In this document: positions 11,827-32,236 of the stretch, one piece after another
How the letters are laid out: each line of letters begins with the position of its first letter
How positions within the stretch are numbered: the first letter of the stretch is position 1
Source: Chlorobiota bacterium
Lineage (GTDB): Bacteria; Bacteroidota; Ignavibacteria; Kapaibacteriales; UBA961
Reading direction: 5' to 3'
DNA length: 64,000 nt
Assembly (NCBI GenBank): GCA_039810485.1
Contig: JBDHXA010000005.1
Coordinates: forward strand, 1,192-65,191
The notes under the pieces: model-generated
The model's input: the letters and a program-made list of their open reading frames with translations, nothing else
Databases searched by the model: none
What the model was told of the DNA's origin: nothing
Translations under genes and position numbers: made by a program

Positions 11827-11843
11827 CCAATGTACAAAGTATT

Positions 11844-12012: not shown

Positions 12013-12126
12013 ATCGTATATTCGAACAGATAATCACGACAGATATTGTCGTATATTTTTAGAAGATTTACGACTTTTGTTGTCGGATATATCAGCGGTC
12101 AATCACGACATATCAAGTCAGATATA
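12013..12126. promoter_or_regulatory. Four direct repeats of a 9-bp motif (ATCGTATAT, GTCGTATAT, GTCGGATAT, GTCAGATAT) spaced 34-36 bp, in the 840-bp region upstream of the nar operon
   Basis: Read directly from the sequence at 12013, 12048, 12082 and 12118. The same motif occurs in reverse-complement form upstream of the bcr-like operon (30641-30775). Confidence 0.45.
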
Positions 12127-12666
12127 AATTTCATATTTATTATAAATATCAACAGGTTATATTATTGTGCTATATTTGAAAATTAAAGTTGCTCACTAAG
12201 AAAAATTTCTTGCTTTTACTCCGTTTAATTCGTAATTTGCATTATAAATTTTCAGAACAAATATAAAAGAACGCTATATTAAAGAGTGTCAACAAACCCT
12301 CAAAGAGTGCTGATGTGATAAGTAATTATTTCACAGATAAAAAGCTCGTTTCTTAAAGTTTTCTTTTACTCAAAATATTTTTTCGTTTCTTTAAATATAG
12401 TTCGAATTCAATTTTTGTTTCATCAATCGTGACATTAAATTCCTAAACTATTTGTTAGAATCGTAAAATCAGTTTCAATGTTGTTAAGGTTGAATACATA
12501 ATGTTAGGTCAAACTAGTTTTGAATAGAAGTTGTATCTACGATAAATTCAACTTTTTTTATAAACATCTAGAACAAAATAATGTTATTAGCATTGCTGGA
12601 AAAACTTGCACAAAAACCCAATTTGTTTGCTTAAACTAATATTGTCTATATAATTTGTAGAAAATC

Positions 12667-13530
12667 ATGAGGCATTTATCACTTTATTTTACGGCGTTCT
12701 TAATCTTAATAATTGGCTCTGCTACAGAAACGACAGCACAAAATGGCGAGGCGGTTTTTAATCAATATTGTAGCGCATGTCATAAGGTTGGAGGAGGCAG
12801 ATTAGTCGGTCCCGATCTCATGGGTATAACATCAAAAAGACCTGTAGATTGGTTGGTAAAATGGACACAATCTTCGCAAGCTCTTGTAAAGAGCGGAGAT
12901 CCTGAAGCAAAGAAAATTTTTGACGAGTTTAGTGGAATGATTATGCCCGATCAGAATATTCCTGAAGCTGATATAAAAAGCATATTTGCCTATATAGATA
13001 CTAAAAGTTCTTCATCTAATACTGCTTCTGCATCTGAAACTCCAAAAGCTCCTGCCTCGAATGCATCTGATAAAGCAACTCCTGAAGATATTGCAATAGG
13101 ACGAAGCATTTTTATCGGCTCACAACGATTAGCAAATGGCGGTCCTGCATGCATATCATGTCATAATGTTAATTACAAAGACGTATTGCAGGGTGGCTTG
13201 CTGGCAAAAGATTTAACAGACGTATTTAGCCGTATGGGCGGTGATGCCGGACTGCAAGGAATTCTGGGTGCTCCGCCATTTCCAGCTATGACACAAGCAT
13301 ATAAAGACAAGCATATAACAGATAAAGAATCTGCGTATCTGATAGCATTTCTAAATAAGGTTAATAAAGATACTGCAAATCAATCTGTAGCTTCTTATAA
13401 TATATTGCTCGTTGGAGGTGTTGGAGGAGCATGCGGACTCCTTTTGTTAATATTAGCGATTTGGCATGGAAGAAAAAGATTTGCCGTGAAAAAATCTATC
13501 TTTAACAGACAATTAAAATCATCTTTTTAA
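12667..13530 (+). CDS. Membrane-anchored dihaem c-type cytochrome (NarC-like) encoded immediately upstream of narG
   Basis: 287 aa. Signal peptide, two CxxCH motifs (CSACH, CISCH) and a C-terminal hydrophobic anchor (LLVGGVGGACGLLLLILAIW). Its position directly before narG parallels the Thermus narCGHJI arrangement. Confidence 0.75.
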   Translation: MRHLSLYFTAFLILIIGSATETTAQNGEAVFNQYCSACHKVGGGRLVGPDLMGITSKRPVDWLVKWTQSSQALVKSGDPEAKKIFDEFSGMIMPDQNIPEADIKSIFAYIDTKSSSSNTASASETPKAPASNASDKATPEDIAIGRSIFIGSQRLANGGPACISCHNVNYKDVLQGGLLAKDLTDVFSRMGGDAGLQGILGAPPFPAMTQAYKDKHITDKESAYLIAFLNKVNKDTANQSVASYNILLVGGVGGACGLLLLILAIWHGRKRFAVKKSIFNRQLKSSF

Positions 13531-13551
13531 TACATATTATATATAAAGAAT

Positions 13552-16500
13552 ATGAGTTGGATAGAAGACATTATCTCTCCACAAACAAGAAAGTGGGAAG
13601 AATTTTACCGCAACCGTTGGCAGTATGACAAAGTAGTGCGAAGCACTCACGGTGTAAACTGTACCGGTGGATGTTCCTGGAATATTCACGTGAAAGACGG
13701 TATCGTTGTTTGGGAAACTCAAGCCCTCGATTATCCGCTTTTGGAAAATACATTACCGCCTTACGAGCCGAGAGGTTGTCAGCGCGGTATTTCTTACTCA
13801 TGGTATTTATACAGTCCTATCCGTGTTAAGTATCCATTGATGCGTGGTGCTTTGATGGACTTGTTTAATAGTGAGAAAAAAGCTGTCGATGGCGATCCCG
13901 TTAAAGCATGGGAAAACCTTCAATCCAATCCTGAAAAACGCAAGCGTTATCAGAGAGCAAGAGGTAAAGGCGGTTTCAGACGCGCCAAGTGGGATGAAGT
14001 GCTCGAACTGATTGCAGCAGCAAATCTTTATACTATTAAGAAATACGGACCTGACAGAATCATCGGTTTCTCACCAATTCCTGCTATGTCTATGTTGAGT
14101 TATGCAGCAGGCGCTCGTTACCTTCAATTGATGGGTGGCGTAAACCTTAGTTTCTACGATTGGTATTGTGATCTTCCGAATGCATATCCTGAAATTTGGG
14201 GCGAGCAAACAGACGTGTGCGAAAGCGCTGACTGGTATAACTCTAAGTTCTGCGTTTCTATGGGTGCTAACCTTGGAATGACAAGAACTCCCGATATTCA
14301 CTTCTTCTCTGAATCAAAACATAACGGAACTAAAACCGTAGTAATGTCGCCTGACTTCAGCATGGTTGCAAAACACGCTGACCAGTGGATTCCTTGTCAT
14401 GCCGGCTCAGATGGCGCTTTCTGGATGGCAGTAACTCATGTTATCTTAAAAGAATATCATGCCGACAGACAAGTTCCTTATTTTATGGAATATGTTAAGC
14501 GTTACACCGATTGCCCGTTTCTTGTGGAACTTGAAAAAGTAGGAGACAATTATCGTCCGGGAAGAATGTTGCGCGCTAATCGTGTAGCTAAATATAAAGA
14601 CGTTGAAAATGGCGACTGGCAATTTTTGAATGTTGATTCTGCTTCAGGCAAATTAGTTTGTCCGAAAGGAACAATGGGTAGTCGTTGGGCAAAAGAAAAT
14701 AGCGGTAAATGGAATTTGAAATACGAAGATTTTCTTGACAATACCTCTTATGATCCATCATTGACTTTATTAAATAAGAGCGATGATGTGTATCAGGTTG
14801 AATTTGTTGAATATGGAATGGATAAAACTGCGCTTCGCGGAGTTCCTGTAAAAATGGTTGAAACAACAGACGGTAAAAAAGTTCCTGTTGCAACTATTTA
14901 TGACCTTACTATGGGTCAGTATGGCGTAGGCAGAGGATTGAAAGGCGAATATCCTTCTTCTTATGATGATGATAAACAGGCATACACTCCGGCATGGCAG
15001 GAAATTTTTACCGGTGTTGGAAGAAAGACCGTTCTCAAATTTGCTCATGAATGGGCTGATACTGCTGAAATCACTAAGGGAAAATGTATGGTGATTGTTG
15101 GCGCTGCCATCAACCATTGGTTCCATGGCAACCTGATGTATCGCGCTGCTATCATGGCTCAAATGCTGACAGGATGCAACGGTGTGAATGGCGGTGGAAT
15201 GAACCACTATGTAGGACAGGAAAAATTAGCTCCGGTTGATTCATGGGGAACAATCATGGCAGCAAAGGACTGGGTCCCTGCAAACCGCTTGCAACAAGGT
15301 CCTATCTGGCATTACATCAACTCCGACCAATGGAGATATGATAACAACCAGATGGACTACAACAGTGTTCCGAAAGACAATAAATTTTCACAGATGCACT
15401 CTGCCGACTGGACGGTTATGTCTGTTCGTAACGGATGGATGCCTTTCTATCCGCAATACAACAAGAGCAATCTGGATGTGGTAAAAGATGCTATGGCAGC
15501 AGGAGCTAATGATGATGACGCTATCAGAAAATATATTGTTGAGAAACTGAAATCGAAAGAATTATTGCACTCTGTGGCTGATCCTGATGCAGACGTAAAC
15601 TTCCCCCGTAACTGGTTTATATGGCGCGGAAATGCCTTGATGTCAAGTGCCAAAGGACATGAATACATGCTTGACCATTACCTCGGAACGCATACAAATA
15701 AAATTGCTGACGAAGTTGCTCAGGAGCATGTTCATGATATTATCTGGCGTGAAGCGCCTAAAGGCAAAATGGATTTAGTTGTGGATATTAATTTCCGCAT
15801 GGATACTTCTGCGCTTTATTCAGACATTGTGTTGCCAACAGCTTCATGGTATGAGAAAGCAGACTTAAACTCAACTGACTTACACTCATTCATTCACCCA
15901 CTTTCAGCAGCAGTTGCTCCTGTTTGGGAAGCAAAAAGCGATTGGCAGATATTCCAGGCAATAGCCAAGCGAGTAAGCGAGTTGGCTGTTACGCATCTTC
16001 CTAATCTAGTGAAGGACGTAATCAATGCGCCTTTGTCTCACGACTCTGCCGATGAAATTACTCAACCTCGTATGCTCGACTGGGCAAAAGGCGAGTGTGA
16101 ACCGGTTCCCGGAAAATCAATGCACAAGTTAGTGTTCGTGGAAAGAGATTATACGCAGATTTACAATAAATACATTTCACTCGGACCAAACATTAAAACC
16201 AATCAGTTAGGCGCACACGGAGTGTCTTACATGGCGGATGATGTTTATGCTGAAATGCTGGAAGACAAACGCCACGTTCAGAAAGTAAATGGAGTGGAAT
16301 ATCCTTCGGTAAAAGAAGACGTGGAAGCGGTAAATGCAGTATTAACACTCTCTACGCTTACCAACGGAATGTTGAATGACAGAGCATATAAAATCATGGA
16401 AAAGAAAACCGGATTGGTGCTTGCTGATTTAGGAGAAGGAAGTAAAGATGTACGTATTGATTATAAAGATTTACAAGCACAGCCAAGAAGATACAACACT

Positions 16501-17175
16501 TCGCCATTGTGGTCAGGGTTGATGAATAACGGTCGTGCTTATTGTGCATATACTTACAATGTGGACAGATTGGTTCCCTGGAGAACATTGACAGGTCGTC
16601 AGCATTTCTACTTAGATCATGACGGCTACATTGCCTTCGGAGAACATCTTGCAACATACAAACCATCTCCAACGCCTCAGGTTTATGGTGATTTGCGTAA
16701 AACAGTCAATGACGGAAAAGCAAGAATGTTGAATGTACTTACTCCTCACGGAAAATGGCATATTCACTCGACTTATGGCGATACACTGCGAATGTTAACG
16801 CTGTCGCGTGGTATTGAGCCTTGCTGGATGAGTGAAGAAGATGCAGCAGCACTGGGCATTAAAGACAACGACTGGGTAGAAGTATATAACGACCACGGAG
16901 TGTATTGCACACGCGCTTGTGTGAGTGCAAGGATTCCAAAAGGTGTTTGTATCGTTTATCACTCGCCTGAAAGAACTTATACTGTTCCTAAATCGCAGGT
17001 TAGAGGCAATAGGCGCGCAGGCGGACACAACAGTTTTACACGTGTACACCTGAAGCCAAATCTGATGACAGGAGGTTACGGACAGTTCTCCTATCACTTC
17101 AACTATTGGGGACCTGTTGGGGTAAATCGTGATACTCACGTTTTAGTAAGAAAAATGGAAAAAGTTATATTTTAA
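13552..17175 (+). CDS. narG: Respiratory nitrate reductase alpha subunit
   Basis: 1207 aa. N-terminal FS0 cluster motif [11 protein letters not shown] and length and content typical of NarG. No TAT signal, so the catalytic site faces the cytoplasm. Confidence 0.95.
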
Positions 17176-17187
17176 TACAAAAAAACT

Positions 17188-18678
17188 ATGGATATAAGAT
17201 CACAAGTTTCAATGGTTTTTCATCTCGATAAATGTATCGGATGCCACACATGTTCTATTGCTTGTAAAAATATCTGGACTGATCGCAAAGGTGCAGAATA
17301 TATGTGGTGGAACAATGTTGAAACAAAGCCGGGCACGGGTTATCCCACAAAGTGGGAAGACCAAGAAATTTACAGAGGCGGCTGGGAGAAAAATGGCGAC
17401 ACCGTGTCGCTCAAAGGTGCCGGTAAATTTAAAGGGTTGAAAAATATATTTCATAATCCGCATTTGCCTGTTCTCGATGACTACTATGAGCCATGGACCT
17501 ATAAGTATCAAGATCTATTTACAGCTCCGGAAGGTGATGACCAGCCGACTGCACGTCCTGTGTCTCTCATAACTGGAGAACATATAGAAGTGCAGGCTGG
17601 CCCAAATTGGGATGATGATTTAGGCGGCTCTCCTGATTATGCACGTCAAGACGTTAATTTGAATGAACTTTCTGCTGCTGAACAAGAAGCAATGTTTCAG
17701 CTTGAAAGGATGACATTCTTCTATCTGCCAAGAATATGCAATCATTGCCTCAATCCTGCTTGTGTGGCTTCCTGCCCTTCTGGAGCTATTTACAAACGAG
17801 GTGAAGATGGCGTTGTATTGATTAATCAAGAGCGTTGCCGTGCATGGAGAATGTGTGTAACTGCTTGCCCATATAAAAAGAGCTATTACAATTGGCATAC
17901 CGGCAAATCAGAAAAATGCGTTCTTTGCTATCCGCGTTTGGAATCTGGGCAAGCGCCTGCATGTTTCCACTCATGTGTGGGCAGGATTCGCTATTTGGGT
18001 GTTATGCTTTATGATGCTGACAGAATACAGCAAGTTGCATCGGTTCCCGAAGACCAATTAGTAGATGCGCAAATGGATATTTATTTAGACCCATTTGATC
18101 CGGTAGTAATCAAGCAAGCACGCTTAAATGGCATAGCAGATTCAACTATTGAAGCAGCTCAAAAATCACCTGTGTATAAATTCGTAAAAGAATGGAAGCT
18201 CGCTCTTCCGTTGCATCCGGAATTTAGGACTTTGCCTAATCTGTTCTATGTGCCTGCGCTATTGCCAACAATGGCAACAGTCAGCAATGGCGTATATGAT
18301 TCAACGAGTGCTTCGTTGTGGAATGGAGTTGAAAAAAATCGTTTGCCTATGAAATATCTTGCATCACTTTTTTCGGCAGGCAACACCGATAAAATCGTTG
18401 AAGTTATGAAACGCTTGATGGCTGTGCGGATGCATAGAAGAAGCACTACCGTTGGAGATGTGACCACAATGGAAGTCGCTTCATCATTGAAAGATGCTCA
18501 AATTGACGGAGAAATTGCTGATGCAATATTCCGACTAACATCATTGGCAACCTTCGACGAGCGATTTGTAATACCTCCAGCCCATCGTGAAGAGTCAATA
18601 GAAATGCTTGAAAACACTGCAGATGTAAAAGGAAATACCGGTTTCGGATTCAAAGAAAGACCCGCTCGAGGATTATAA
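17188..18678 (+). CDS. narH: Respiratory nitrate reductase beta subunit (Fe-S)
   Basis: 496 aa with several Cys clusters (CIGCHTCSIAC, CNHCLNPACVASCP, CRAWRMCVTACP). Translationally coupled to narG. Confidence 0.95.
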   Translation: MDIRSQVSMVFHLDKCIGCHTCSIACKNIWTDRKGAEYMWWNNVETKPGTGYPTKWEDQEIYRGGWEKNGDTVSLKGAGKFKGLKNIFHNPHLPVLDDYYEPWTYKYQDLFTAPEGDDQPTARPVSLITGEHIEVQAGPNWDDDLGGSPDYARQDVNLNELSAAEQEAMFQLERMTFFYLPRICNHCLNPACVASCPSGAIYKRGEDGVVLINQERCRAWRMCVTACPYKKSYYNWHTGKSEKCVLCYPRLESGQAPACFHSCVGRIRYLGVMLYDADRIQQVASVPEDQLVDAQMDIYLDPFDPVVIKQARLNGIADSTIEAAQKSPVYKFVKEWKLALPLHPEFRTLPNLFYVPALLPTMATVSNGVYDSTSASLWNGVEKNRLPMKYLASLFSAGNTDKIVEVMKRLMAVRMHRRSTTVGDVTTMEVASSLKDAQIDGEIADAIFRLTSLATFDERFVIPPAHREESIEMLENTADVKGNTGFGFKERPARGL

Positions 18679-19383
18679 ATGGATCAATATTATCATTATA
18701 ACATATTAGCTGATCTGTTCAGATATCCCGGCTCTAATTTTATCGAGATACTGAATAATTGCAAAGAAGTATTAGAAAATATAAGTTCAGAAGCATCGCA
18801 AGAATTTAAGGTGTATTACACCTATATGATTGAATGCACAGAAGATCAGCGCGAAGAATTATATACTAAAACTTTTGACGTTCAACCAATTTGTTATTTA
18901 GATTTAGGTTATGTTATTTTTGGCGAGGATTATAAACGCGGGGCTTTTCTGCTGAATATGCAGCAAGAACAACAAAAAGCAGGAAATGATTGCGGAACAG
19001 ATTTGCCTGATAATATTTGCAATGTTCTTACTTTTTTCTATAAAACAAACAACCAGCAAATTGTGAATGAATTGGCAGTCAAGATTCTTATTCCCGCAGT
19101 TGAAAAGATGATTGCAGAATTTGCGCAAGCACGGGTTGAATTGAAAGTCAATGTGTTAAAAAAGCTTCATAGCGCTATTATACAAGAAGAACTCAATCAG
19201 GGAAACGTCTATCAGAACGCATTTAAAGCGCTTTTGCAAGTCCTAAAAAAAGATTTCAAAGATGTTAGTTTTGAACAAGAACATGATACTATCATTAATC
19301 TTCAGCATCACAAATCATTCTTTGGAAAACAAAGCGTAAATATTGAGATAAACAATTTAGTTAGTAATTATCAACTTGATTAG
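18679..19383 (+). CDS. narJ: Nitrate reductase assembly chaperone (delta subunit)
   Basis: 234 aa acidic protein in the canonical position between narH and narI. Its start overlaps the narH stop. Confidence 0.8.
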   Translation: MDQYYHYNILADLFRYPGSNFIEILNNCKEVLENISSEASQEFKVYYTYMIECTEDQREELYTKTFDVQPICYLDLGYVIFGEDYKRGAFLLNMQQEQQKAGNDCGTDLPDNICNVLTFFYKTNNQQIVNELAVKILIPAVEKMIAEFAQARVELKVNVLKKLHSAIIQEELNQGNVYQNAFKALLQVLKKDFKDVSFEQEHDTIINLQHHKSFFGKQSVNIEINNLVSNYQLD

Positions 19384-19385
19384 CT

Positions 19386-20111
19386 ATGACAAATACTTTG
19401 CTGTTCATTGTTCTGCCTTATGCAGCGCTTCTAATTTTTTTGATTGGCTCAATATATCGCTATATGAGCAAACAATTTAGCGTGTCTTCTATTTCATCGC
19501 AATTTTTAGAGAGCAGGCGACTCTTTTGGGGCAGTCAGCCATTCCATTGGGGTTTATTTATATTATTTTTTGGACATTTAACGGCTTTTCTCTTTCCTCG
19601 GGCAGTATTGGCGTGGAATGGCGAACCAATGCGTCTACTTATATTGGAAATATCTGCTTTTTCCTTTGGTTTGCTATCGCTGATTGGAGTATTACTTCTA
19701 ATCCTTAGAAGATTCTCCAATAGTCGTGTTCAAATTGTTACTAGTAAGATGGACATTGTAGTTTATGTGATTTTACTCATACAAATAATATCGGGATTAT
19801 TGGTTGCTTATGACAATCGTTGGGGATCTTCTTGGTTTGCGGCGTTTGTAACTCCGTATCTTCGCTCAATATTTGTGTTTGATCCTCAAATGGAAGCAAT
19901 AGTCAGCGTAAATTCTCTGTCTCTTAAAATACATATTGTTTCGGCATTTACACTTATTGGCCTTATACCATTTACAAGGTTTATGCATTTCTTGGTTTAT
20001 CCTTTAGATTATTTGTGGAGAAATTATCAGCAAGTAATCTGGAATTGGGATAGAAAGAGAATTCGCACTTCGCGCTCTCATTCTGAGGGTCACGCATCTA
20101 TGAATAACTAA
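19386..20111 (+). CDS. narI: Respiratory nitrate reductase gamma subunit (dihaem b membrane anchor)
   Basis: 241 aa, five hydrophobic helices, conserved His in helices 2 and 5 (HWGLF, HFLVYP). Last gene of the narGHJI block. Confidence 0.85.
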   Translation: MTNTLLFIVLPYAALLIFLIGSIYRYMSKQFSVSSISSQFLESRRLFWGSQPFHWGLFILFFGHLTAFLFPRAVLAWNGEPMRLLILEISAFSFGLLSLIGVLLLILRRFSNSRVQIVTSKMDIVVYVILLIQIISGLLVAYDNRWGSSWFAAFVTPYLRSIFVFDPQMEAIVSVNSLSLKIHIVSAFTLIGLIPFTRFMHFLVYPLDYLWRNYQQVIWNWDRKRIRTSRSHSEGHASMNN

Positions 20112-20169
20112 AATTATTCTTACACGCTAATTATTATTGATTAAAATTCAAAGGTATTAAATATAGATT

Positions 20170-20838
20170 ATGGTTAATCTTAAAGAGTTAGCCAAAACGG
20201 ATCCTATTAAACGAAATGCAGAAAAAGGACTTGAACAAGTTGAAAACTCACCTATGGATCCACCTTCGGCTTATGAACAACCGAGAGTATTGAAAAATGA
20301 TTCTGAAAATATGGGAAATGCATTGCAGATTTTGATGGACGAGCATAAAAATGCTTTGACTAAAATTGAAAGTTTTGAGAAGGCTTTAGTAGAATTCAAA
20401 TCAAGTGGATATAAACTTGACAAGAAAATGAACGAAATATTCAAGGAGTTCTTTAGTTTCCTTGACAATGGTTTATTTCCTCATAACAGCAAGGAAGAAA
20501 AAGCGCTTTTTCCCACTCTCCATAAAAAACTCATTGAAGTAGGAGAACATGGAATAGGAGAAAATCCAAGGACTGCCATTGACGTAATGGAAGATGATCA
20601 TATTAAGTTTATACAATTAGGAGCTTTAACATTTAATTTTCTTGGACTTGCCACTCGTATTAATGATGAGAAATCGCGCGTTTTTATATTGGACACTGCC
20701 TACGAGAATGGACGCGAATTAATTGAATTATTAAAGCTTCATATATTCCGAGAGGACTACACTCTTTTTCCGCTCGCGCAAAAACATCTGTCGAAAGAGG
20801 AATTAGATAATATAGAAAAAGAAATGAAAAAATATTGA
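20170..20838 (+). CDS. Hemerythrin-like (HHE cation-binding) domain protein
   Basis: 222 aa with repeated H/HxxxE-type motifs (MDEHKNAL, FPHNSKEE, MEDDHIKF, HIFREDY). Sits between narI and narK. Confidence 0.55.
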   Translation: MVNLKELAKTDPIKRNAEKGLEQVENSPMDPPSAYEQPRVLKNDSENMGNALQILMDEHKNALTKIESFEKALVEFKSSGYKLDKKMNEIFKEFFSFLDNGLFPHNSKEEKALFPTLHKKLIEVGEHGIGENPRTAIDVMEDDHIKFIQLGALTFNFLGLATRINDEKSRVFILDTAYENGRELIELLKLHIFREDYTLFPLAQKHLSKEELDNIEKEMKKY

Positions 20839-20875
20839 TGAATTGCATATTGTTAAAGTAATTCATCAATTATGT

Positions 20876-21068
20876 ATGAGCCCACTCCGAAAAGTCGTGT
20901 AATATTTCAAATCAAAGAAAACATGGTGAAAAAGTACAGTTTTTACTCGTTTTCAAGTGAAAAACGTCAAAAAACGACTTTTTTAGCTCTTGAAAGATAA
21001 GTTTTTTTGAAAAATAGCGAATCTTTTGTCTGCAATTTTTATGAAATATCTTTTCGGAGTGGGCTCAT
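20876..21068 (+). mobile_element. MITE-like non-autonomous element, copy 1 (193 bp, 19-bp perfect terminal inverted repeats ATGAGCCCACTCCGAAAAG)
   Basis: Left end ATGAGCCCACTCCGAAAAG at 20876. Right end CTTTTCGGAGTGGGCTCAT ends at 21068. No ORF inside. A second copy, ~87% identical and in inverted orientation, lies at 59111-59302. Confidence 0.7.
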
Positions 21069-21131
21069 GTATAATAAATATAAAAGTTATAGCAGAAATT
21101 AATTTTCTTGAAATATGTCTTATTAATATGT

Positions 21132-21158
21132 AAAGTCCATAGCCGGTTAACAGAACCG
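21132..21158 (+). terminator. Rho-independent terminator
   Basis: GCCGGTT-AACAG-AACCGGC hairpin followed by TTTTTTTT. Confidence 0.65.
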
Positions 21159-21240
21159 GCTTTTTTTTACTGATAAAAATTATTTGCCTCTTTCTCATTG
21201 CGTTCATTATAATATTTATAAATAACTTAGTGGTTGTTTC

Positions 21241-22719
21241 GTGAAATCTTATCGTATTCTTATACTCAATTTACTTGCTTTTACCGTATGCTTTGCCGCA
21301 TGGATGATAAATGGCGTTTTAGTAACGTTTTTAACCAATAACGGCATATTTACTTGGAATGCAGAGCAAATTGGATGGCTACTAGGGGTGCCGGTTTTAG
21401 TTGGTTCAATACTTCGGCTTCCAGTGGGTATGCTGACAGATAAGTTTGGCGGCAAATGGGTAATGACTGCAATTCTGCTTCTGAGCGCAATTCCTATGTA
21501 TCTTTTATCCATTGCTAATAGTTACAGCTCGTTTCTATTGCTAAGTTTTGGCTTTGGATTGTCTGGAAGTTCTTTTGCCGCGGGAGTTGCGTATGTGTCA
21601 TTATGGTTTTCAAAGGATAAACAAGGTACTGCACTAGGAGTATTCGGCGCTGGAAATGTTGGAGCTGCACTAACAACTCTTTTTGCTCCAAGCATATTAG
21701 GATGGCTTACGCACAATGGGGCCAATCTTAACGAATGGCGAACACTCCCAAAACTTTATGCTCTTTTACTAGTGCTAACTGCAATTGTATTTTTTGTTTT
21801 TTCAAAAAATAAAAAGCCTGATGTAATTCGTTCTTTTAAGCAGCGTTTTGATCCATTGAAACAAGTGCGCGTTTGGCGTTTTGGATTGTATTATTTTTTC
21901 GTTTTTGGTAGTTTTGTTGCCTTAACGCAATGGCTTATTCCTTATTATGTTAACGTATATTCTATGACAATTGTTGCCGCTGGCTTTATGACTACCGCAT
22001 TCAATTTGCCTGCCGGATTATTGCGAATTGTTGGAGGTGTTTTAGCTGACAAAATTGGAGCAAGAGTAGTTCTATATTGGGTGTTGGGAATATGCATTGT
22101 ATGTCTTTTATTTCTTTTTCCGCCAAGAGTTGAAATTCAAACGCCTGGGCAAGGAATTATGGCTGGCAAATCAGGTGTTGTGAAAAGTGTCGCAGAAAAT
22201 GAAATTGTTTTGACCGACCCTAATAATCCTAACCAAAACACTGCGTATCCATTGCAGCCAAAAGAAGGTCCAATTGAAATTCGTTTTGGAATTCATCATA
22301 ACCAAGAGGGATTTTTACCTTTGCCTTCTACTGTTACTTGGCATGAGTCGCAAGTAACAGAAGGTGAAAAAGTATCCAAAGGACAATTGTTGGCAAAGGG
22401 TATAACTCATATTTATTTCCAAGCAAATAAATGGATTTTTACAACTTTTGTATTTATCATTGGCATTATGATGGGCATTGGCGGCGCCGCTGTATTTAAA
22501 CATATTTCAAGTTATTATCCTGGTGATGTAGGAACAGTAGGTGGAATTGTAGGAGTTATTGGCGGTTTGGGCGGTTTTATCGATCCAATAATTTTTGGAT
22601 ATCTATTGAAATTTACTGGAGTATGGACTTCTTCATGGCTTTTCCTATTTGTTTTAGCAGCCATTAGTATGGTTTGGATGCGTCTTACTATCAAGCATAT
22701 TATAGTTGACAAAGGTTAA
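21241..22719 (+). CDS. narK: MFS nitrate/nitrite transporter with an unusual ~100-aa hydrophilic insertion
   Basis: 492 aa. Twelve-helix MFS layout; the N-terminal half is typical of the NarK/NNP family (GMLTDKFGGKWV). Adjacent to the nar operon. Residues ~295-400 form a non-hydrophobic insert between helices. Confidence 0.8.
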   Translation: MKSYRILILNLLAFTVCFAAWMINGVLVTFLTNNGIFTWNAEQIGWLLGVPVLVGSILRLPVGMLTDKFGGKWVMTAILLLSAIPMYLLSIANSYSSFLLLSFGFGLSGSSFAAGVAYVSLWFSKDKQGTALGVFGAGNVGAALTTLFAPSILGWLTHNGANLNEWRTLPKLYALLLVLTAIVFFVFSKNKKPDVIRSFKQRFDPLKQVRVWRFGLYYFFVFGSFVALTQWLIPYYVNVYSMTIVAAGFMTTAFNLPAGLLRIVGGVLADKIGARVVLYWVLGICIVCLLFLFPPRVEIQTPGQGIMAGKSGVVKSVAENEIVLTDPNNPNQNTAYPLQPKEGPIEIRFGIHHNQEGFLPLPSTVTWHESQVTEGEKVSKGQLLAKGITHIYFQANKWIFTTFVFIIGIMMGIGGAAVFKHISSYYPGDVGTVGGIVGVIGGLGGFIDPIIFGYLLKFTGVWTSSWLFLFVLAAISMVWMRLTIKHIIVDKG

Positions 22720-23619
22720 GATATAATAATGAATATGCGATTAAAACATGAACTATCGCTTCGCTGACATTTGAAATTACAAAAGAACATAAATGATTGT
22801 AAAATAATCAAATGGTAATTATTATAATATTGCAAAACAAGCAGTTGAAAACATAATAATAAGTGATGAAATGATTGTTAAAACTAACCTACTACCTGAT
22901 AACTCCACTTTGAAATTAGTTGAGATAATTTTTAATTACACAGATAGTTATCAAGGAACAATAATTGATAAAATGAAAATATAGAAATATTGTCAGTGGT
23001 AAATTCTTTTTTTATGAGCACCCCAAATTAAATTAGAAAACTTATTTGTATCCGAGACAAAATGTTTTTTACTTCGATTTAAAAATTTTATATCAGTCTC
23101 ATAATCAAAAGAATCAGATTGATAGTTTTAAGTGTGATGTTGTGAAGAGTAAATAGGTATTTTTAAAGTGTTCGACAGGATCGAAAAGGAAGTTGTATTG
23201 GTTGAAGACGACAAACACTAAATTATATAATTCCAACCCTTATTGATGAAAATAAAGGAAACGATTGCTTAAAATACATTGCAATACCTATTGCTGTAAA
23301 ATTCAACAATAGGATGGTGAAGATTTTTATGAAGTTGCAAGGCTTTTTCACAAAATAATAGTTTCAGATGTTTTAATGGAAATAATTAGGTAAATAGAGA
23401 AATAAAATATTGTGAAATAACAATTGCATGTTTGTAAAGTACTCATATTTATTAGTTGTTATAAGCACTGTAAGCTCAATTGTCGATATGCAACCTTTTT
23501 CCAATTTCCATCCCATTATTTCGCCAAACCCCGATATTAAAAATAATTCCCTTCGTTGAATTAGACAAAATTTTGGAAATTTATTTTTCATCGTGAGATT
23601 TGCACTCAAATGATGTTAT

Positions 23620-24663
23620 ATGAGACAGCAGCTAATTGAGACAATTCGAGATCTTTCGCCTGCCTACTTTGCAATGGTGATGGCTACTGGTGTAGTATCT
23701 AGTGCCTCGTTTTTTATGGAAATGTATGCAATATCGTATCCATTATTTTGGATAAATATTTTCCTCTATTTATCACTTTGTGTTGCAACTGCCTTAAGAA
23801 TTTTAATGTTCCGCTCTTATGTTGTGCAAGATTTATTGGATCATGTAAGAGGCATGGGTTTTTTTACTATTGTTGCTGCAACGTCATTATTAGGCACACA
23901 GTTTATTCTTCTCGAGGGAAACTATCATATTGCTAAGATTTTATGGTTTGTTGCCATATTATTTTGGATAGTTATCACTTATTCTATTTTTACAAATCTA
24001 ACTATCAAAAAAGACAAACCATCGTTTTCAGATGGAATAAATGGATCATGGCTGTTGGCGGTTGTTTCTACCCAAAGTTTGGCAGTATTAAGCTCTAAAC
24101 TTTCGATGCATTTTGTAACCTATAAGCTTGTGCTCAATTTTTTTGCATTTGCTTTATGGCTTTGGGGTGGAATGCTCTATATTTGGATGATTTCTTTGAT
24201 ATTTTACCGCTATACTTTTTTTAAATTTTCTCCAAGCGATTTGACTCCACCGTATTGGATTAACATGGGAGCAATGGCAATATCAACTTTAGCCGGTTCC
24301 TTATTGATAATCAATACGCCGAATGCTCCTTTTCTGTTTTCAACACTGGCATTTCTAAAAGGATTTACTATATTCTACTGGGTAACGGGCACTTGGTGGA
24401 TACCGATGCTTTTTATTCTTGCTTTTTGGCGACACATTTACAAAAAATTTCCATTGCACTACGATCCATTATATTGGGGTGCTGTATTTCCGTTGGGAAT
24501 GTATACTGCTTGTACATTTGAGATGGCAAAAGCAATGGATCTTGAATTTTTGCTGCCAATACCTAAATATTTTATCTATATTGCATTATCAGCATGGACT
24601 GCAACGTTTGTGGGATTTGTTGTAAATGTGATTAAGAAATTCGTGCCAATTGCAAAAGCATAG
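23620..24663 (+). CDS. TDT/TehA-family (SLAC1-like) anion transporter
   Basis: 347 aa polytopic membrane protein (~10 helices). N-terminal region resembles tellurite-resistance/C4-dicarboxylate transporter family proteins. Confidence 0.45.
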   Translation: MRQQLIETIRDLSPAYFAMVMATGVVSSASFFMEMYAISYPLFWINIFLYLSLCVATALRILMFRSYVVQDLLDHVRGMGFFTIVAATSLLGTQFILLEGNYHIAKILWFVAILFWIVITYSIFTNLTIKKDKPSFSDGINGSWLLAVVSTQSLAVLSSKLSMHFVTYKLVLNFFAFALWLWGGMLYIWMISLIFYRYTFFKFSPSDLTPPYWINMGAMAISTLAGSLLIINTPNAPFLFSTLAFLKGFTIFYWVTGTWWIPMLFILAFWRHIYKKFPLHYDPLYWGAVFPLGMYTACTFEMAKAMDLEFLLPIPKYFIYIALSAWTATFVGFVVNVIKKFVPIAKA

Positions 24664-24742
24664 TTATCCAATATTGTAAAATTTGTGGCAGTGTAATTCG
24701 TTACTATTAGCTATAATTACCTAAAATTTGTAAATAGTTGAA

Positions 24743-25726
24743 ATGCTTATAGATTCTTATGGCAGGGCGCATGATTATCTGCGCATCTCAATCACCGATA
24801 AATGCAACCTTCGCTGTTCATATTGTATTCCATACGATTTGCCGCATGGATTCTATGCCAACTCTCAACGCCTTACACCCGAAGAAATATACACAATTGC
24901 AAAAGTATTCGTTGGATTGGGAGTTAAAAAAATACGAATAACAGGCGGAGAGCCGTTGGTGCGCAAAGAATGCAGGAGAATACTTCAGATTCTTTCCGAA
25001 TTGCCGGTCGAAATTGTTCTTTCAAGCAATGGAGTTCTGATAGATGAATTTCTTGATGATTTAATAAAGCATCGCATCAGTTCTGTAAATATCAGTTTAG
25101 ATTCGCTGAAAGAAGAAACTTTCAATGCTATTACTCGAAGAAATCAGCAAAAAAGGGTGCTGGCAAATATTAATTTGTTGCTTAAACATAATTTTCATGT
25201 TAAAATTAACACGGTTGCAATGCGAGGAGTTAATGATCATGAATTTGTAGATTTCGTAGCGATGACTCAAAACTCACCGCTCGACATTCGCTTTATTGAG
25301 TATATGCCTTTTATCGGAAATGGCTGGAGCAAGGAAAAAGTTATAACGAAAAATGAAATACTGGATATTATAAGCGATTCATTTTCTTATGATAAAATTG
25401 AAGATGCCGCGCACAGCACTTCAAAAAATTTCAGAGTGAAAAACGGGTCTGGAACTTTCGGAATTATAACAACAATGAGCGAGCCATTCTGTGGAGACTG
25501 CAATAGGTTGCGATTAACAGCCGATGGCAAAATAAAAAACTGCTTATTCGGAAAGGAAGAAATAGATCTGATGACAGCTTTGAGAAACGGCGAAGATATA
25601 ATATCTCTGATTTATCAATCAGTTAAAAATAAATATGCTGTTATGGGAGGCCAGTTCGATAAAGGATATCAATTAATAGAAACAGAAGATATTGTAAATC
25701 GCAGCATGATTGGAATAGGCGGATAA
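24743..25726 (+). CDS. moaA: GTP 3',8-cyclase (radical-SAM Moco biosynthesis protein A)
   Basis: 327 aa. Radical-SAM CNLRCSYC motif and C-terminal second Cys cluster CGDCNRLRLTADGKIKNC. Confidence 0.9.
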   Translation: MLIDSYGRAHDYLRISITDKCNLRCSYCIPYDLPHGFYANSQRLTPEEIYTIAKVFVGLGVKKIRITGGEPLVRKECRRILQILSELPVEIVLSSNGVLIDEFLDDLIKHRISSVNISLDSLKEETFNAITRRNQQKRVLANINLLLKHNFHVKINTVAMRGVNDHEFVDFVAMTQNSPLDIRFIEYMPFIGNGWSKEKVITKNEILDIISDSFSYDKIEDAAHSTSKNFRVKNGSGTFGIITTMSEPFCGDCNRLRLTADGKIKNCLFGKEEIDLMTALRNGEDIISLIYQSVKNKYAVMGGQFDKGYQLIETEDIVNRSMIGIGG

Positions 25727-25728
25727 AA

Positions 25729-26913
25729 ATGTTAACAATGCCAAGCGTAGCTGAAGCAAAAAAAATATTGTCGAGCAATATCATTACATTGCCCGATGAA
25801 GAATTGCCTATAATTGGAGCTCTCGGAAGAAACGTAAGTCAAGACATTTATGCGCCAATAGATGTGCCCTCATTCGATAATTCTGCAATGGATGGTTTTG
25901 CGCTTAATTATCAACAAGGAAATTCGAGCTATAAAATTATATCGCAAATTCAAGCTGGGGACAGTGCGCTTTATCGTCTTAATACCGATGAAACAGCTCG
26001 GATTTTTACTGGTGCGCCAATGCCGCAAGGCGCAGATACGGTCATTCAACAAGAATTAGTTGAAATTCATAATGATGAAATTTCCTTTGATGAAAATAAT
26101 ATTTTCAAAGGTGTCAATGTGCGTTTACGCGGCTCTCAATGCAAACAAGGCGATAAAATTCTACTGAGCGGAAGTAAAATTACTCCAGGTTCTGTAGCTT
26201 TGTTGAGTTCGGTTGGCATGAGAAAAATACGGGTGCATCAACAACCCAAAGTTGCACTTATAGTAACCGGAAACGAATTAATCGAGCCCGGAAAGACATT
26301 GCAACACGGTCAAATTTATAATTCTAATGAACCGGCTGTTCTATCATATCTTGCTTTATTGGGTATAACCAATACAATTTCGGTGCAAGTGCGAGATAAT
26401 CTTTTTGATGTGCAATATCAACTATCAAGAGCTTTGCAACAATGCGATGTGCTAATTATAACAGGCGGGATTTCCGTAGGTGAATACGACTTTGTATATC
26501 AAGCGCTTATCAATGAAAATGTGAAACCCCTATTTTACAAAGTAAAGCAAAAGCCCGGAAAACCGCTTTTTATCGGAATGAAAGAAAATAAACACATTTT
26601 TGCTTTGCCGGGTAATCCTGCCGCTGTCCTCAGTTGTATTAATCAATATGTAAAACCTTGTTTGCTCGGAATGCGCGGTGAAAAGGAGTCATTTCGCCCT
26701 TCTGTATTATTGCCTTTATCTCATAATTACACAAAAAAAACACCTTTGACAAATATCTTAAAGGCAAAAGTTTCACATAGTGAAGCAACAATTCTTAGCG
26801 GGCAAGATTCCTTTAATTTACAATCGTTTAGCGAGGTAAACGCTTTCGTCGTTCTCTACGAGGAAGATGCATCGAAGCAAAAGGGTGAAAAAGTAGAAGT
26901 ATATTATTTATAA
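25729..26913 (+). CDS. moeA: Molybdopterin molybdenumtransferase
   Basis: 394 aa. MoeA N-terminal and MoCF-binding domain (ITGGISVGEYDFV, ALPGNPAA). Confidence 0.9.
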   Translation: MLTMPSVAEAKKILSSNIITLPDEELPIIGALGRNVSQDIYAPIDVPSFDNSAMDGFALNYQQGNSSYKIISQIQAGDSALYRLNTDETARIFTGAPMPQGADTVIQQELVEIHNDEISFDENNIFKGVNVRLRGSQCKQGDKILLSGSKITPGSVALLSSVGMRKIRVHQQPKVALIVTGNELIEPGKTLQHGQIYNSNEPAVLSYLALLGITNTISVQVRDNLFDVQYQLSRALQQCDVLIITGGISVGEYDFVYQALINENVKPLFYKVKQKPGKPLFIGMKENKHIFALPGNPAAVLSCINQYVKPCLLGMRGEKESFRPSVLLPLSHNYTKKTPLTNILKAKVSHSEATILSGQDSFNLQSFSEVNAFVVLYEEDASKQKGEKVEVYYL

Positions 26914-26921
26914 TGTAAACG

Positions 26922-27656
26922 ATGGAACATCATCTGCAAATATTGCTGTTTATTTTGATGCCGCTTGCAGCTTTTCTCTATTCTTCTGTTGGGCATGGCG
27001 GCGCCAGCAGCTATATTGTGTTATTAACGTTATTCGGCTTTTTGCCAGCAGAAGTACGCCCCGCCGCATTGGTGTTAAATATTGGCGTTTCAGCCATCTC
27101 ATTTCTTACCTTCCATCGAAAATGCGATTTTCCTTACAAGTTTTTTTTAATTCTGATATTATTTTCAATTCCGGCAGCTTACTTGGGCGGGACATTTACC
27201 CTCGATGCAAAAGTATATCAAAAAATTCTTGGGCTGCTGCTTCTATTGCCGATTGCCAGATTGTTTAATCTTTTCAGAGTTAAAGAGGGCAAGCCCGTTC
27301 CTAAAAATTTTCTTCTGATAGCTTTTCTATCATTTTCTATTGGATTTATCTCGGGAATAATAGGAATAGGAGGCGGCATTTTACTGTCGCCCATATTAAT
27401 ATTCTTTGGTTGGGCAGATTTAAAACAAACTGCAGCTATAAGCGGTTTGTTTATATTCCTAAATTCTATTGCAGGTTTGCTGGGAACAGGAGCAACCAAT
27501 TTTTCATGGCTGCCACATTTTGAATTAATTATTCCGCTTACATTAGCAGGCGGAATTGCGGGCGGTTATTTAGGAGCAAATAAATATTCTCCGCCGGCTA
27601 TGAAATATGCGCTTGCAATAGTACTGTCTATAGCATCAGTAAAATTTCTGATTTAA
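26922..27656 (+). CDS. TauE/SafE-family (DUF81) anion exporter-like membrane protein embedded in the Moco operon
   Basis: 244 aa, ~8 helices, with duplicated Gly-rich motifs (VGHGGASSYIV, IGIGGGILLSP) typical of PF01925. Confidence 0.65.
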   Translation: MEHHLQILLFILMPLAAFLYSSVGHGGASSYIVLLTLFGFLPAEVRPAALVLNIGVSAISFLTFHRKCDFPYKFFLILILFSIPAAYLGGTFTLDAKVYQKILGLLLLLPIARLFNLFRVKEGKPVPKNFLLIAFLSFSIGFISGIIGIGGGILLSPILIFFGWADLKQTAAISGLFIFLNSIAGLLGTGATNFSWLPHFELIIPLTLAGGIAGGYLGANKYSPPAMKYALAIVLSIASVKFLI

Positions 27657-28255
27657 TGCCTGCAGACAACGTTGATATTTTTATTACTGCCGGCGGCAAA
27701 AGCTCGCGTATGGGGCAAGATAAAGGATTGGTGCACATAGCAGGTAAGCCAATGATTCTGCATATTGCCGACACATTAAAAGCACAGCATCATATTTTTA
27801 AGGTCATTGCAAATTCTGACGAATATAAAAAGTTAGGTTTGAACGTCGTGCCAGATATTGTGTGTGAAAAAGGTCCAATGGGAGCGCTTTATGCTGCGTA
27901 TTACTATTCTCAAAATGAATACGTAATGATTCTCGGTTGTGATACGCCTTTTATTCCATATTCTGCATTGCTGAGATTGATAAATAATACTAATACGAAT
28001 AGCATTACAGTTGCTGGCATTCACTCCAAGATCAATCCTCTTTTGGCGGTATACCCCGCATATTATAGACAAGAAGTAAAAAGGCGCATTGAAAAAAACA
28101 ATCTAAAGATGCAGGATTTTATAGATCACTCAAATTATCGTGTGATTGAAATGGATGACATTCTGCAAAAATTTCCTGACGGATTTTTTAATTTTAACGA
28201 AAAGAAAGATTTAGAGCAATGGAGCAACATGCAAACTCATCAAAAGTTAAAATAA
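27656..28255 (+). CDS. mobA: Molybdenum cofactor guanylyltransferase
   Basis: 199 aa. N-terminal NTP-transferase motif ITAGGKSSRMGQDKGL. Confidence 0.8.
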   Translation: MPADNVDIFITAGGKSSRMGQDKGLVHIAGKPMILHIADTLKAQHHIFKVIANSDEYKKLGLNVVPDIVCEKGPMGALYAAYYYSQNEYVMILGCDTPFIPYSALLRLINNTNTNSITVAGIHSKINPLLAVYPAYYRQEVKRRIEKNNLKMQDFIDHSNYRVIEMDDILQKFPDGFFNFNEKKDLEQWSNMQTHQKLK

Positions 28256-28479
28256 TTGCTTTTGGTATTGCTGCGGAAAAAATGAAAACCAATATTATGT
28301 ATGCCGACGGTATTCATGATATTCGTTCGCTTCGCTCATGGCTTGCCACACAATATCCGGCTTTAAAAGATTTGAACCTTTCAATTGCAATTAATAAAAA
28401 AATTGTTCAAGAATCTGTAGATATAAGCATACCTGAAAATGCCGAGATTGCTCTTTTGCCTCCATTTTCAGGCGGGTAA
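28219..28479 (+). CDS. moaD: Molybdopterin synthase sulfur-carrier subunit
   Basis: Small protein ending in the diagnostic C-terminal Gly-Gly (…LPPFSGG). The annotated ATG overlaps mobA by 37 nt, so the true start is uncertain. Confidence 0.7.
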   Translation: MEQHANSSKVKIIAFGIAAEKMKTNIMYADGIHDIRSLRSWLATQYPALKDLNLSIAINKKIVQESVDISIPENAEIALLPPFSGG

Positions 28480-28485
28480 TAAGAT

Positions 28486-29586
28486 ATGATGCAACGCTTT
28501 GAACGTCAGATAAATTTGCGCGGCTTCGGTGTTGAAGGTCAGCGGCGGCTCATGCAATCTTCTGCTTTGATTGTAGGAGTCGGAGGTCTTGGATGTCCGG
28601 CCTTATTATATTTGGCTGCAGCTGGAGTCAAAAGAATTGGTATAGCAGATGGCGATATCGTCAGCATGTCTAATCTTAACAGACAAGTGTTGTTTGGGAT
28701 AGGCGATAATCATAAAAAAAAGACAGAAACAGCAGCCATATTTATCCGCGAAAAATATGATGATGTTCAAATTGATGAATACTCATTTTATTTGGATGTG
28801 AGCAATTCGCTCGATATTATCTCGCAATACGATATTGTGCTTGATTGCACGGATAATTTTTCAGTGAGGTATATGGTAAATGATGCTTGCTTATTGCTGA
28901 ATAAGCCGGTTATTTATGGCGCTATTTACGAGTATGAAGGACAAGTGAGCGTTTTTAATATTCAAAATACTGACGGTTGTTCATATAATTATCGAGATTT
29001 GTTTCCTGATCCTCCTGACAGTTCACAAATTCCTAACTGCAATGAAACTGGAGTTCTTGGAGTTCTTCCTGGTATAATAGGCACGATGCAGGCAGCAGAG
29101 ACAATCAAAATTTTAAGCGGCATTGGAACTTCTCTTTCGGGGAAAGTATTGTACTATAATATCGAATATCAGCAGTTTTATGATATGGATATTATCAAGT
29201 CAGCAATTGGTTCGTGCAAAGCGCCGCAAAACATGGATGAGTTTTGCAATCATGATTATTCTCTCTCATGCTCTGTTACAAAATCTATTGACTGGAATGA
29301 AGCAAAAAAAATCTACAACGAGAAGCCAGACCAAACCATCTATATAGATGTGAGAGAATTGGATGAATTTCCCAAAGTTTCAGCAATTGAATGTCTCATA
29401 TTGCCTATGTCATTGCTTCCTGATGAATGTTATCGTTTATCGGAAGCATCTAATCTCTTAATATTTTGCAGAAGCGGTATAAGAAGCGAAAAAGCCGCTC
29501 AAATGCTTCAATCAAAATTCCCACAGAAAAGCATCTATTCAATAAAAGGCGGAGTTCTGAGCAAACTATCACCGATATATTCATAA
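28486..29586 (+). CDS. moeB: Molybdopterin-synthase adenylyltransferase (ThiF/MoeB E1-like) fused to a C-terminal rhodanese domain
   Basis: 366 aa. Nucleotide-binding GVGGLGCPALLYLAAAGV, a CxxC pair, and a C-terminal rhodanese active-site loop (FCRSGIRSEKAAQ). Confidence 0.85.
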   Translation: MMQRFERQINLRGFGVEGQRRLMQSSALIVGVGGLGCPALLYLAAAGVKRIGIADGDIVSMSNLNRQVLFGIGDNHKKKTETAAIFIREKYDDVQIDEYSFYLDVSNSLDIISQYDIVLDCTDNFSVRYMVNDACLLLNKPVIYGAIYEYEGQVSVFNIQNTDGCSYNYRDLFPDPPDSSQIPNCNETGVLGVLPGIIGTMQAAETIKILSGIGTSLSGKVLYYNIEYQQFYDMDIIKSAIGSCKAPQNMDEFCNHDYSLSCSVTKSIDWNEAKKIYNEKPDQTIYIDVRELDEFPKVSAIECLILPMSLLPDECYRLSEASNLLIFCRSGIRSEKAAQMLQSKFPQKSIYSIKGGVLSKLSPIYS

Positions 29587-29591
29587 TAAAA

Positions 29592-30032
29592 ATGCAACAC
29601 AAACCAAAAAATATATTTATACAAGGACCAATTACTGCTCAAAAAATAGCTGACAGCATTTCAGGGCATAGCACAAAAACAGATATTGGAGCACATAGCA
29701 TTTTTCTAGGTCAAGTGCGCGCCGATAGTAATGAGCAAGGAACTGTTGAGGCAATTGAATACACTGCATACGAAGAAATGGCGCTTGAAAGAGCGCATGA
29801 AATTCGCGAAGAAATCTTTGTAAGATTTGAATTGAATTGCATGCATATTTACCATAGCTTGGGAAAAGTTAAGGCAGGCGAAATTTCTCTCTTTGTTTTC
29901 ATTTCATCCAAGCATCGCAAAGCGGCTATTAAAGCGTGCGAGGAAGTCGTCGAGCGAATTAAAAAAACGTTGCCAATTTGGGGTAAAGAGATTATGCAAG
30001 GTAATAAATCTACGTGGAAAGAGAACAACTGA
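29592..30032 (+). CDS. moaE: Molybdopterin synthase catalytic subunit
   Basis: The ORF-track start at 29466 overlaps moeB. The internal Met at 29592 (MQHKPKNIFIQGPI…) gives a ~146-aa MoaE-sized product immediately after the moeB stop. Confidence 0.8.
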   Translation: MQHKPKNIFIQGPITAQKIADSISGHSTKTDIGAHSIFLGQVRADSNEQGTVEAIEYTAYEEMALERAHEIREEIFVRFELNCMHIYHSLGKVKAGEISLFVFISSKHRKAAIKACEEVVERIKKTLPIWGKEIMQGNKSTWKENN

Positions 30033-30640
30033 TTTCGAAGCAATGTTTGAAAAATTTGGCACAAAACAAACAATAACGCATGCAAGCAAACGAAAGATTG
30101 AACGTTTTTTTATTTCCGATGATGCTTTAAAATAAAATATCTGCTCAATTTGTAGCAATGATTGATTGAATAATTATTGAAAATATCGTAATCGGGCTAT
30201 TTTCTAAAAACCACAGAGCGCAAAGTCCATTCATTTTACAGCCATCCATTCAAATTCAAAACATCAAAGTTTGCCGTCTATTCTGACATCAAAATTGGAA
30301 GTTTTAGCTATACAGACACATCCAACAGACGAGATTTACTAAGATTCCTTCACAAAAATCTCAATCTAATAAGTAATTGTAAAAACTTACAAAATAAATG
30401 AATATTATTTCTTACTATGCAGCCAATTGTAATTTGTAAAATAATTTACCGATGTTTGACTCTCATATTTTCATTTAAGGATTGTAAAAATCGAATTAAA
30501 ACTGCATAAATAAATTGAATTGTTAGATCGAAAAATCTTATTTCAATTGCATCTTTTCTATAAAAAACATCATTTCTTATTTATAGAATTTTACCAGCCG
30601 ATCTATGAGTAAAGTTAAATATATTGTTAAAGTAAAGAAT

Positions 30641-30775
30641 ATATCCGACTATAAACAAAGTATAAGCGTTGCTCGGCATTATTTTAATATCCGACAAAAT
30701 AAAGCGTATAATAATTACTTGCAAAGATATAATAGCCGACAAAAGTAATCATGTTTTATATTTATAATATCTGAC
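30641..30775. promoter_or_regulatory. Four direct repeats of ATATCCGAC / ATATCCGAC / ATAGCCGAC / ATATCTGAC, spaced 46, 45 and 35 bp, in the 980-bp region upstream of the bcr-like operon
   Basis: Read directly at 30641, 30687, 30732 and 30767. Reverse complement of the GTCNGATAT repeats upstream of the nar operon. Confidence 0.45.
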
Positions 30776-32202: not shown

Positions 32203-32236
32203 AACCAAGTTATGTATAATATATAAATAAAAAAAT

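Follow-up and report, generated by a model that had tools for sequence, protein, structure and literature searches.

Mutually inverted four-site arrays upstream of the nar and bcr-like operons of an uncultured Bacteroidota bacterium are candidate binding-site clusters of a common regulator

Here, we describe two arrays of a shared sequence motif in a 64-kb stretch of DNA from an uncultured member of the Bacteroidota (Chlorobiota bacterium, assembly GCA_039810485.1, contig JBDHXA010000005.1, positions 1,192 to 65,191; hereafter the window), which has a GC content of 38% and carries nearly all of its genes on the plus strand. Four copies of a 9-bp core resembling GTCGGATAT are located upstream of the nar operon (array 1), and four copies on the opposite strand are located upstream of an operon starting with bcrC-like genes (array 2). 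In the reading we favour, to which we give about an even chance, the arrays would represent lineage-specific binding-site clusters, serving as operators or upstream activating sites, for one sequence-specific DNA-binding protein, which would be encoded outside the window and would most likely regulate the transcription of nar and bcr.

An alignment of the eight sites revealed that the full unit is longer than the 9-mer and covers about 24-26 bp, following the pattern [A/T]nAC-N10-GTC[G/A]GATAT (Table 1). Seven of the eight core units have the dinucleotide AC exactly 10 nt 5' of the core, and the remaining one has AT there. In array 1, AATYACGAC forms the left part of three of the four core units, which results in an imperfect palindrome (ACGAC-N7-GTCG). 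The top local alignment of the two spacers consists of one entire unit (ATTTACGACTTTTGTTGTCGGATAT vs ATTATACGCTTTATTTTGTCGGATAT). Within and between the arrays, the core has pairwise identities of 0.81-0.89, the left part has 0.45-0.70, and the sequence downstream of the core falls to 0.20-0.45, which is about the expectation from base composition. The cores follow each other at distances of 35, 34 and 35 bp in array 1 and of 46, 45 and 35 bp in array 2. Since the AC-N10-core register is fixed while the distance between units varies (35 vs 45-46 bp), we conclude that the unit is conserved and that the arrays are not a mere 35-bp tandem repeat. Weaker units upstream of array 1, the last of which includes ATCCGGTAT starting at 11978, keep the 35-bp register, so that this array comprises up to six periods. 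With distances of 34-46 bp, each site is rotated by about one third of a helical turn relative to its neighbour. From site 1 to site 4, the distance is 104 bp or 9.9 turns in array 1 and 126 bp or 12.0 turns in array 2, which brings these two sites into phase. All eight 9-mers listed in a first-pass annotation of the window are present, although GTCAGATAT of array 1 starts at 12117 and not at 12118; the spacing given there for array 2 is accurate, and the 34-36 bp given for array 1 have to be replaced by the values above.

The clustering of the motif clearly exceeds what is expected by chance. RTCRKATAT has 13 matches in the window compared to 4.61 ± 2.15 expected, a number reached by none of 100 shuffles, and seven of the 13 fall within the two arrays. 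Likewise, seven of the 11 sites with at least 14 bits in a position weight matrix scan of the window are packed into the approximately 250 bp of the arrays; the remaining ones occur singly, one of them in a miniature inverted-repeat transposable element (MITE) and three in coding sequence. As a look-elsewhere control, all 9-mers with at least four G/C were considered in both intergenic regions (11827-12666 and 30033-31011). The largest family of 9-mers within one mismatch is that of GTCGGATAT with seven members, while the largest family in 200 dinucleotide shuffles of the spacers had 3.8 members on average (standard deviation 0.7) and six at most. In the remaining intergenic DNA of the window, about 4.3 kb, there is a single isolated match, within a MITE, and no copies were found in the long spacers at 22720-23619, 20839-21240 and 61665-62436 and in most of 58442-59520. 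Thus, the first-pass proposal of a non-randomly clustered word that is common to both upstream regions is supported, and the motif is not equally frequent in the other AT-rich intergenic DNA of the window, which had been named as the alternative. The two spacers are not the two longest intergenic regions, as had been stated, since their 840 and 979 bp compare to 1079 bp (58442-59520) and 900 bp (22720-23619) in array-free ones.

These data also bear on the alternative that the arrays are non-functional, i.e. decayed local tandem duplications of an AT-rich spacer, which share the word by chance or descent. Such an origin would agree with the regular 35-bp period of array 1, in which a repeat search finds 35-nt units with 71% identity, with the lack of conservation data from other genomes and with the presence of several unusually long non-coding spacers in this genome. 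However, one and the same core occurs in two arrays that are 18.6 kb apart, on opposite strands and of different period, conservation is confined to the core, with the remainder of the unit no more similar than background, the GTCGGATAT family is larger than in every one of the 200 shuffles, and copies are missing from further long spacers, namely 22720-23619 and most of 58442-59520. Because the core and the AC-N10 register are maintained despite the differing spacing, selection on a binding site explains the pattern better than the decay of a tandem duplication, and we consider a non-functional origin unlikely.

The MITE mentioned above exists in two copies of about 200 bp, which are largely identical over the shared part (20868-21100, between the hemerythrin gene and narK, and 59112-59310, inverted and upstream of the histidine kinase gene) and which have 20-bp terminal inverted repeats (TATGAGCCCACTCCGAAAAG ... 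CTTTTCGGAGTGGGCTCAT). The earlier suggestion that the element might spread the regulatory site can be dismissed: copy 2 contains GTCGGATAT, copy 1 reads GTCGTGTAATAT at the same position, and the arrays are located outside the MITEs, so that the match is coincidental.

FNR operators at anaerobic promoters are of the type TTGAT-N4-ATCAA, and a box of this type was found at the corresponding promoters of related genomes. In four of the five related genomes fetched, ATGAY-N4-RTCAT boxes are located upstream of narC (L002, L003, L005-7 and L008; L numbers denote loci of relatives), and the fifth genome (L009/L010), which has no such box, carries a crp/fnr gene directly upstream of narC. The same box precedes bcrC in L131/132, L133-136, L139 and L141, and moaA in L131 and L133. 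A gene of the crp/fnr family immediately precedes narC in L003 and L009/L010 and separates moaE from bcrC in L133-136, and these are the two places where the window carries the arrays. Two tandem boxes precede bcrC in L139 and L141. The nar and bcr operons and those for biosynthesis of the molybdenum cofactor (Moco) apparently form an FNR-type regulon in related Bacteroidota.

This module is absent from the window. In agreement with the first-pass annotation, which had seen no obvious FNR site, the regions upstream of nar, bcr and moaA (11827-12666, 30033-31011 and 24664-24742, respectively) contain no match within one mismatch to ATGAYNNNNRTCAT, and the six exact matches to TGAY-N4-RTCA in the window are all located within annotated coding open reading frames (ORFs). 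Neither a crp/fnr gene nor a remnant of one was detected in the window by tblastn with the Crp-like proteins of L133 and L009 (best E-value 0.8), and the promoters next to bcrC could not be aligned between the window and its relatives clearly enough to place a degenerate FNR remnant. Since the narC and bcrC promoters of most relatives fetched share one site type, the control of nar and bcr by a single common factor appears to be the ancestral state, and, judging from these sequences, the cis-element appears to have been exchanged in the lineage of the window.

From the sites we infer that a protein, whatever its identity and the sign of its regulation, would bind the arrays in the following manner. 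Each site would be recognized as a bipartite unit, whose left part in array 1 would act as a true inverted half-site, as for a dimer. The phasing of the sites suggests that about 105-130 bp would be bound cooperatively, and the DNA may be wrapped on an oligomer. In the relatives, an FNR-type box and in many cases a crp/fnr gene occupy the places of the arrays, and we therefore read the arrays as the product of a regulatory replacement that kept nar and bcr under common control. A more far-reaching version, which we regard as possible but doubtful, would hold that this lineage dropped the FNR-box and crp/fnr module at the nar and aromatic operons for four-site arrays of a so far undescribed regulator, which assembles on about 105-126 bp and belongs to a new type, anaerobic or linked to molybdenum, that wraps DNA in an unusual way.

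Searches for further arrays remained without success. A search of genome contigs with the NarC-like protein yielded three loci with 48% identity, none with an array, and NarC homologues (up to 65% identity) have short upstream regions without arrays. BcrC homologues show up to 87% identity; the eight of their loci that were fetched come from about five genomes, and none of them contains an array. A three-block pattern (ATATCCGAC-N20-48-ATAKMYGAC-N20-48-ATAKMYGAY) gave at least 120 matches in metagenome contigs, and all of those listed were perfect tandem repeats, satellites or plasmid-type iterons unlike the unit; its five matches in viral contigs were all unrelated. A blastn search of plasmids for distant matches to array 1 retrieved nothing relevant, and a literature search for the 9-mers returned primers and short hairpin RNAs only. 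Over 14.6 kb, array 1 included, a contig of an independent Logan assembly of SRR19427095 agrees with the window at every base; for a corresponding check of the assembly across array 2, the BcrC of the window was looked up as an exact protein and is not on record.

Several observations weigh against the binding-site reading. Among the collections searched, the array was seen in this genome alone, so that a phylogenetic footprint is missing, and the support comes from the sequence of one genome. Specificity was judged on the window alone, since the motif density scan covers these 64 kb of the genome. The left half of the array 2 units is reduced to ATAC, which leaves this array without the left half-site palindrome. 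Furthermore, the arrays are oppositely oriented and the start codons are about 540 bp (array 1) and 240 bp (array 2) away, a combination that does not fit the geometry of one simple activator. As for regulators, the window encodes only a histidine kinase and an extracytoplasmic function (ECF)-type sigma factor (59521-61664). The common regulator assumed in the first-pass annotation gains indirect support from the FNR-like box shared by the two promoters in most relatives fetched, but orientation and distances do not suit a simple activator.

Multi-site operators are a familiar kind of regulatory element, and yet the motif and the layout of four sites offset by a third of a turn match no known regulator among those tested. 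FNR/CRP operators occupy the narC and bcrC promoters of the orthologous loci and thereby provide nar and bcr with a shared cis-element, as the arrays would do; however, an FNR-type operator has just one palindrome of 14 bp near the core promoter, whereas the arrays consist of four to six 26-bp units over 105-195 bp of unrelated sequence. Upstream of E. coli narG, NarL heptamers (TACYYMT, also arranged as 7-2-7) are distributed as several sites over more than 100 bp. This clustering of regulator sites upstream of a nar operon resembles array 1, but the nar spacer of the window holds two isolated TACYYMT matches and no 7-2-7 pair, and the array sequence is unrelated. Lrp/AsnC-type regions are characterized by multiple imperfect palindromes spaced about three helical turns apart, and by analogy the four sites of an array could correspond to four dimers. 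No match to the Lrp consensus was found, the 45-46 bp spacing of array 2 is atypical, and the window contains no gene of this family.

In another alternative, the arrays would serve a non-transcriptional or architectural system, such as a nucleoid-associated or Lrp/AsnC-like wrapping protein, a partition protein, iterons or DnaA boxes. We consider this quite unlikely, even though four evenly spaced sites that rotate by about one third of a turn, with the first and the last in phase, would suit it. DnaA boxes do not form a cluster (22 matches vs 18.4 expected in the window, none near the arrays), the GC skew is positive throughout the window without a switch, rep or par genes are not present, and the sequences of the iteron-like matches obtained in the collection scans are unrelated. 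In addition, the arrays precede two operons with linked functions, which speaks for a role in gene regulation.

A specific version of the regulator model, to which we attach only a small probability, interprets the arrays as Mo-box-like sites of a ModE-type regulator, i.e. a molybdate-responsive winged-helix protein, which would tie nar, Moco biosynthesis and the cluster of the molybdenum-dependent 4-hydroxybenzoyl-CoA reductase to the availability of molybdate. The half-site of the arrays (ATCGTATAT / ATCGGCTATAT) resembles the one of E. coli ModE, whose consensus is ATCGNTATATA-N6-TATATANCGAT (PMC545781); both are TATAT-rich and CG-anchored, and both are associated with Moco and nitrate reductase genes. 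ModE sites vary widely among taxa, the genes around the arrays are mostly molybdenum-related, and single-domain ModE-N proteins of 105-110 aa are encoded within the nar/Moco clusters of relatives (L008, 20286-20618, TIGR00637, E = 2.8e-24; L003, 7430-7744 on the minus strand, Pfam HTH_1). The palindrome geometry, however, is not that of ModE: the best sites match the full E. coli-type palindrome at 13-14 of 20 positions compared to 13.9 ± 0.6 in shuffles, the constant spacing AC-N10-GTCG places CG inside and not outside as in the ModE arrangement, and array 2 has no second half-site. Moreover, the window contains no modE-like gene, and the relatives that do possess a ModE-N gene carry no such arrays.

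Finally, we reject as highly improbable a reading in which the arrays mark the two ends of a mobile nar-Moco island of about 18.8 kb, with a transposase or recombinase binding to these subterminal repeats in the manner of Tn7, Mu or Tn402. The ends of Tn7 (TnsB sites) and Mu (L1-3/R1-3) each carry three or four directly repeated sites of about 22-26 bp, with the two ends inverted, and the arrays share this architecture in that they are mutually inverted and bracket exactly the narC...moaE block (12.0-30.8 kb). Yet, the arrays differ in that no transposase or integrase is encoded between or beside them (Pfam assigns the ORFs at 12.6-30.0 kb to respiratory, transport and Moco genes only), that no terminal inverted repeat extends beyond the units (flank alignment 28-31 vs 28 ± 3.2 in shuffles), that there is no target-site duplication and that no similar array was present among the matches listed from the viral, plasmid and metagenome collections. 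Array-less relatives (L131-L136, BcrC 87% identical) keep the gene order SLAC1...moaA-moeA-tauE-mobA-thiS-thiF-moaE-bcrC, and since the moaE-bcrC junction is thus present without arrays, the right-hand junction is ancestral and older than the arrays.

As had been noted in the first-pass annotation, both arrays are located ahead of anaerobic operons; the two spacers bear promoters and precede the co-oriented nar and bcr operons. The features are listed in Table 1.

Table 1 Array units and gene context in the window. Cores are the GTCGGATAT-like 9-mers.
Feature	Position	Strand	Details
aspS and AmiA-like gene	9057-11826		precede the 840-bp spacer
Spacer with array 1	11827-12666		840 bp; between AmiA-like gene and narC-like gene
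Array 1, weaker upstream units	11930-11986	+	ATCGGCTAT at 11930; TTCGTATAT at 11943; AATTGCGAC-N7-ATCCGGTAT ending at 11986
Array 1, unit 1	11996-12021	+	AAATTAAGAC-N7-ATCGTATAT; core 12013-12021
Array 1, unit 2	12031-12056	+	TAATCACGAC-N7-GTCGTATAT; core 12048-12056; perfect palindrome ACGACA-N5-TGTCGT inside
Array 1, unit 3	12065-12090	+	GATTTACGAC-N7-GTCGGATAT; core 12082-12090
Array 1, unit 4	12100-12125	+	CAATCACGAC-N7-GTCAGATAT; core 12117-12125
TATATTTG	12171-12178	+	perfect TAnnTTTG match; starts 46 bp past the end of unit 4; candidate distal nar promoter
narC-like cytochrome c, narG, narH, narJ-like, narI	12667-20111	+	operon downstream of array 1
Hemerythrin-domain gene, MITE, narK (major facilitator superfamily), 900-bp spacer, SLAC1/TehA	after narI		in this order
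moaA, moeA, tauE, mobA, (thiS), thiF/moeB, moaE	end at 30032		
Spacer with array 2	30033-31011		979 bp; between moaE and bcrC-like gene
Array 2, unit 4	30641-30666	-	ATAC-N10-GTCGGATAT; core 30641-30649
Array 2, unit 3	30687-30712	-	ATACGC-N8-GTCGGATAT; core 30687-30695
Array 2, unit 2	30732-30757	-	ACAT-N10-GTCGGCTAT; core 30732-30740
Array 2, unit 1	30767-30792	-	ATAC-N10-GTCAGATAT; core 30767-30775
bcrC/bcrB-like (HGD-D) and bcrA/bcrD-like ATPase genes	31012-35843	+	start of aromatic-degradation operon downstream of array 2
Class-I benzoyl-CoA reductase-like operon, ring-cleavage, beta-oxidation, 2-oxoglutarate:ferredoxin oxidoreductase (KGOR), 4-hydroxybenzoyl-CoA reductase-like Mo-hydroxylase	31012-56065		
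Second hemerythrin gene, moaC/moaB, two small genes, second MITE copy, histidine kinase and ECF-type sigma factor	downstream of aromatic cluster		

The consensus of the -7 promoter box in Bacteroidetes is TAnnTTTG, and apart from the candidate distal nar promoter after array 1 (Table 1), a second match, TAGTTTTG, is located at 12515. Sigma-70 promoter counts are no higher than in shuffled sequence, and the only terminator-like calls within array 1 are due to both strands of the palindrome in unit 2. Neither array spacer holds an ORF of more than 53 aa, and Rfam identified zero RNA families in the entire window, hence no Moco riboswitch in the long leaders. Two promoter-like strings, TATTGTGCTATATTTGAAAATT after array 1 (12163-12184) and TATTGTGCTCTTTGAAATT before bcrC (30944-30962), are similar to each other, which may point to related core promoters, although by eye they would align no better than shuffled sequences.

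Some further features of the window deserve mention. The array-free spacer between narK and SLAC1/TehA (22720-23619) comprises 900 bp with a GC content of 27% and contains no ORF of more than 78 aa, no Rfam match and no motif copy; in the relative L009, the two genes are only 48 bp apart. Two proteins with a hemerythrin (HHE) domain are encoded at the end of the nar operon (20170-20838) and at the end of the aromatic cluster (56123-56632), and hemerythrin genes are also kept beside nar in the relatives L005, L008 and L009. These proteins may be components of oxygen or nitric oxide sensing or of repair. A tandem repeat, (ATTAAAA) x 10.6, is located at 56047-56123 between the gene for the flavin adenine dinucleotide (FAD) subunit of the Mo-hydroxylase and the second hemerythrin-domain gene. 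The histidine kinase gene is directly followed by the gene for the ECF-type sigma factor, which is TIGR02943-like (151 bits vs a cutoff of 162), and neither a response regulator nor an anti-sigma gene is visible. At the start of the window, one long open frame on the minus strand (1-2598) runs off this edge, so that this stretch is coding and not intergenic.

The reach of these findings is limited because multi-site operators are common and the array is carried by one genome. If the arrays are real operators, they would define the recognition sequence of a regulator that couples nitrate respiration to anaerobic aromatic degradation in an uncultured denitrifier of the Bacteroidota. The 26-bp unit would then be a concrete probe for finding the binder, with GAGCCATAT as the core-mutated counterpart of GTCGGATAT. 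Likewise, the two loci would represent a clean case of regulon rewiring, in which the gene set and its order were kept while the FNR module was swapped for another cis-element.

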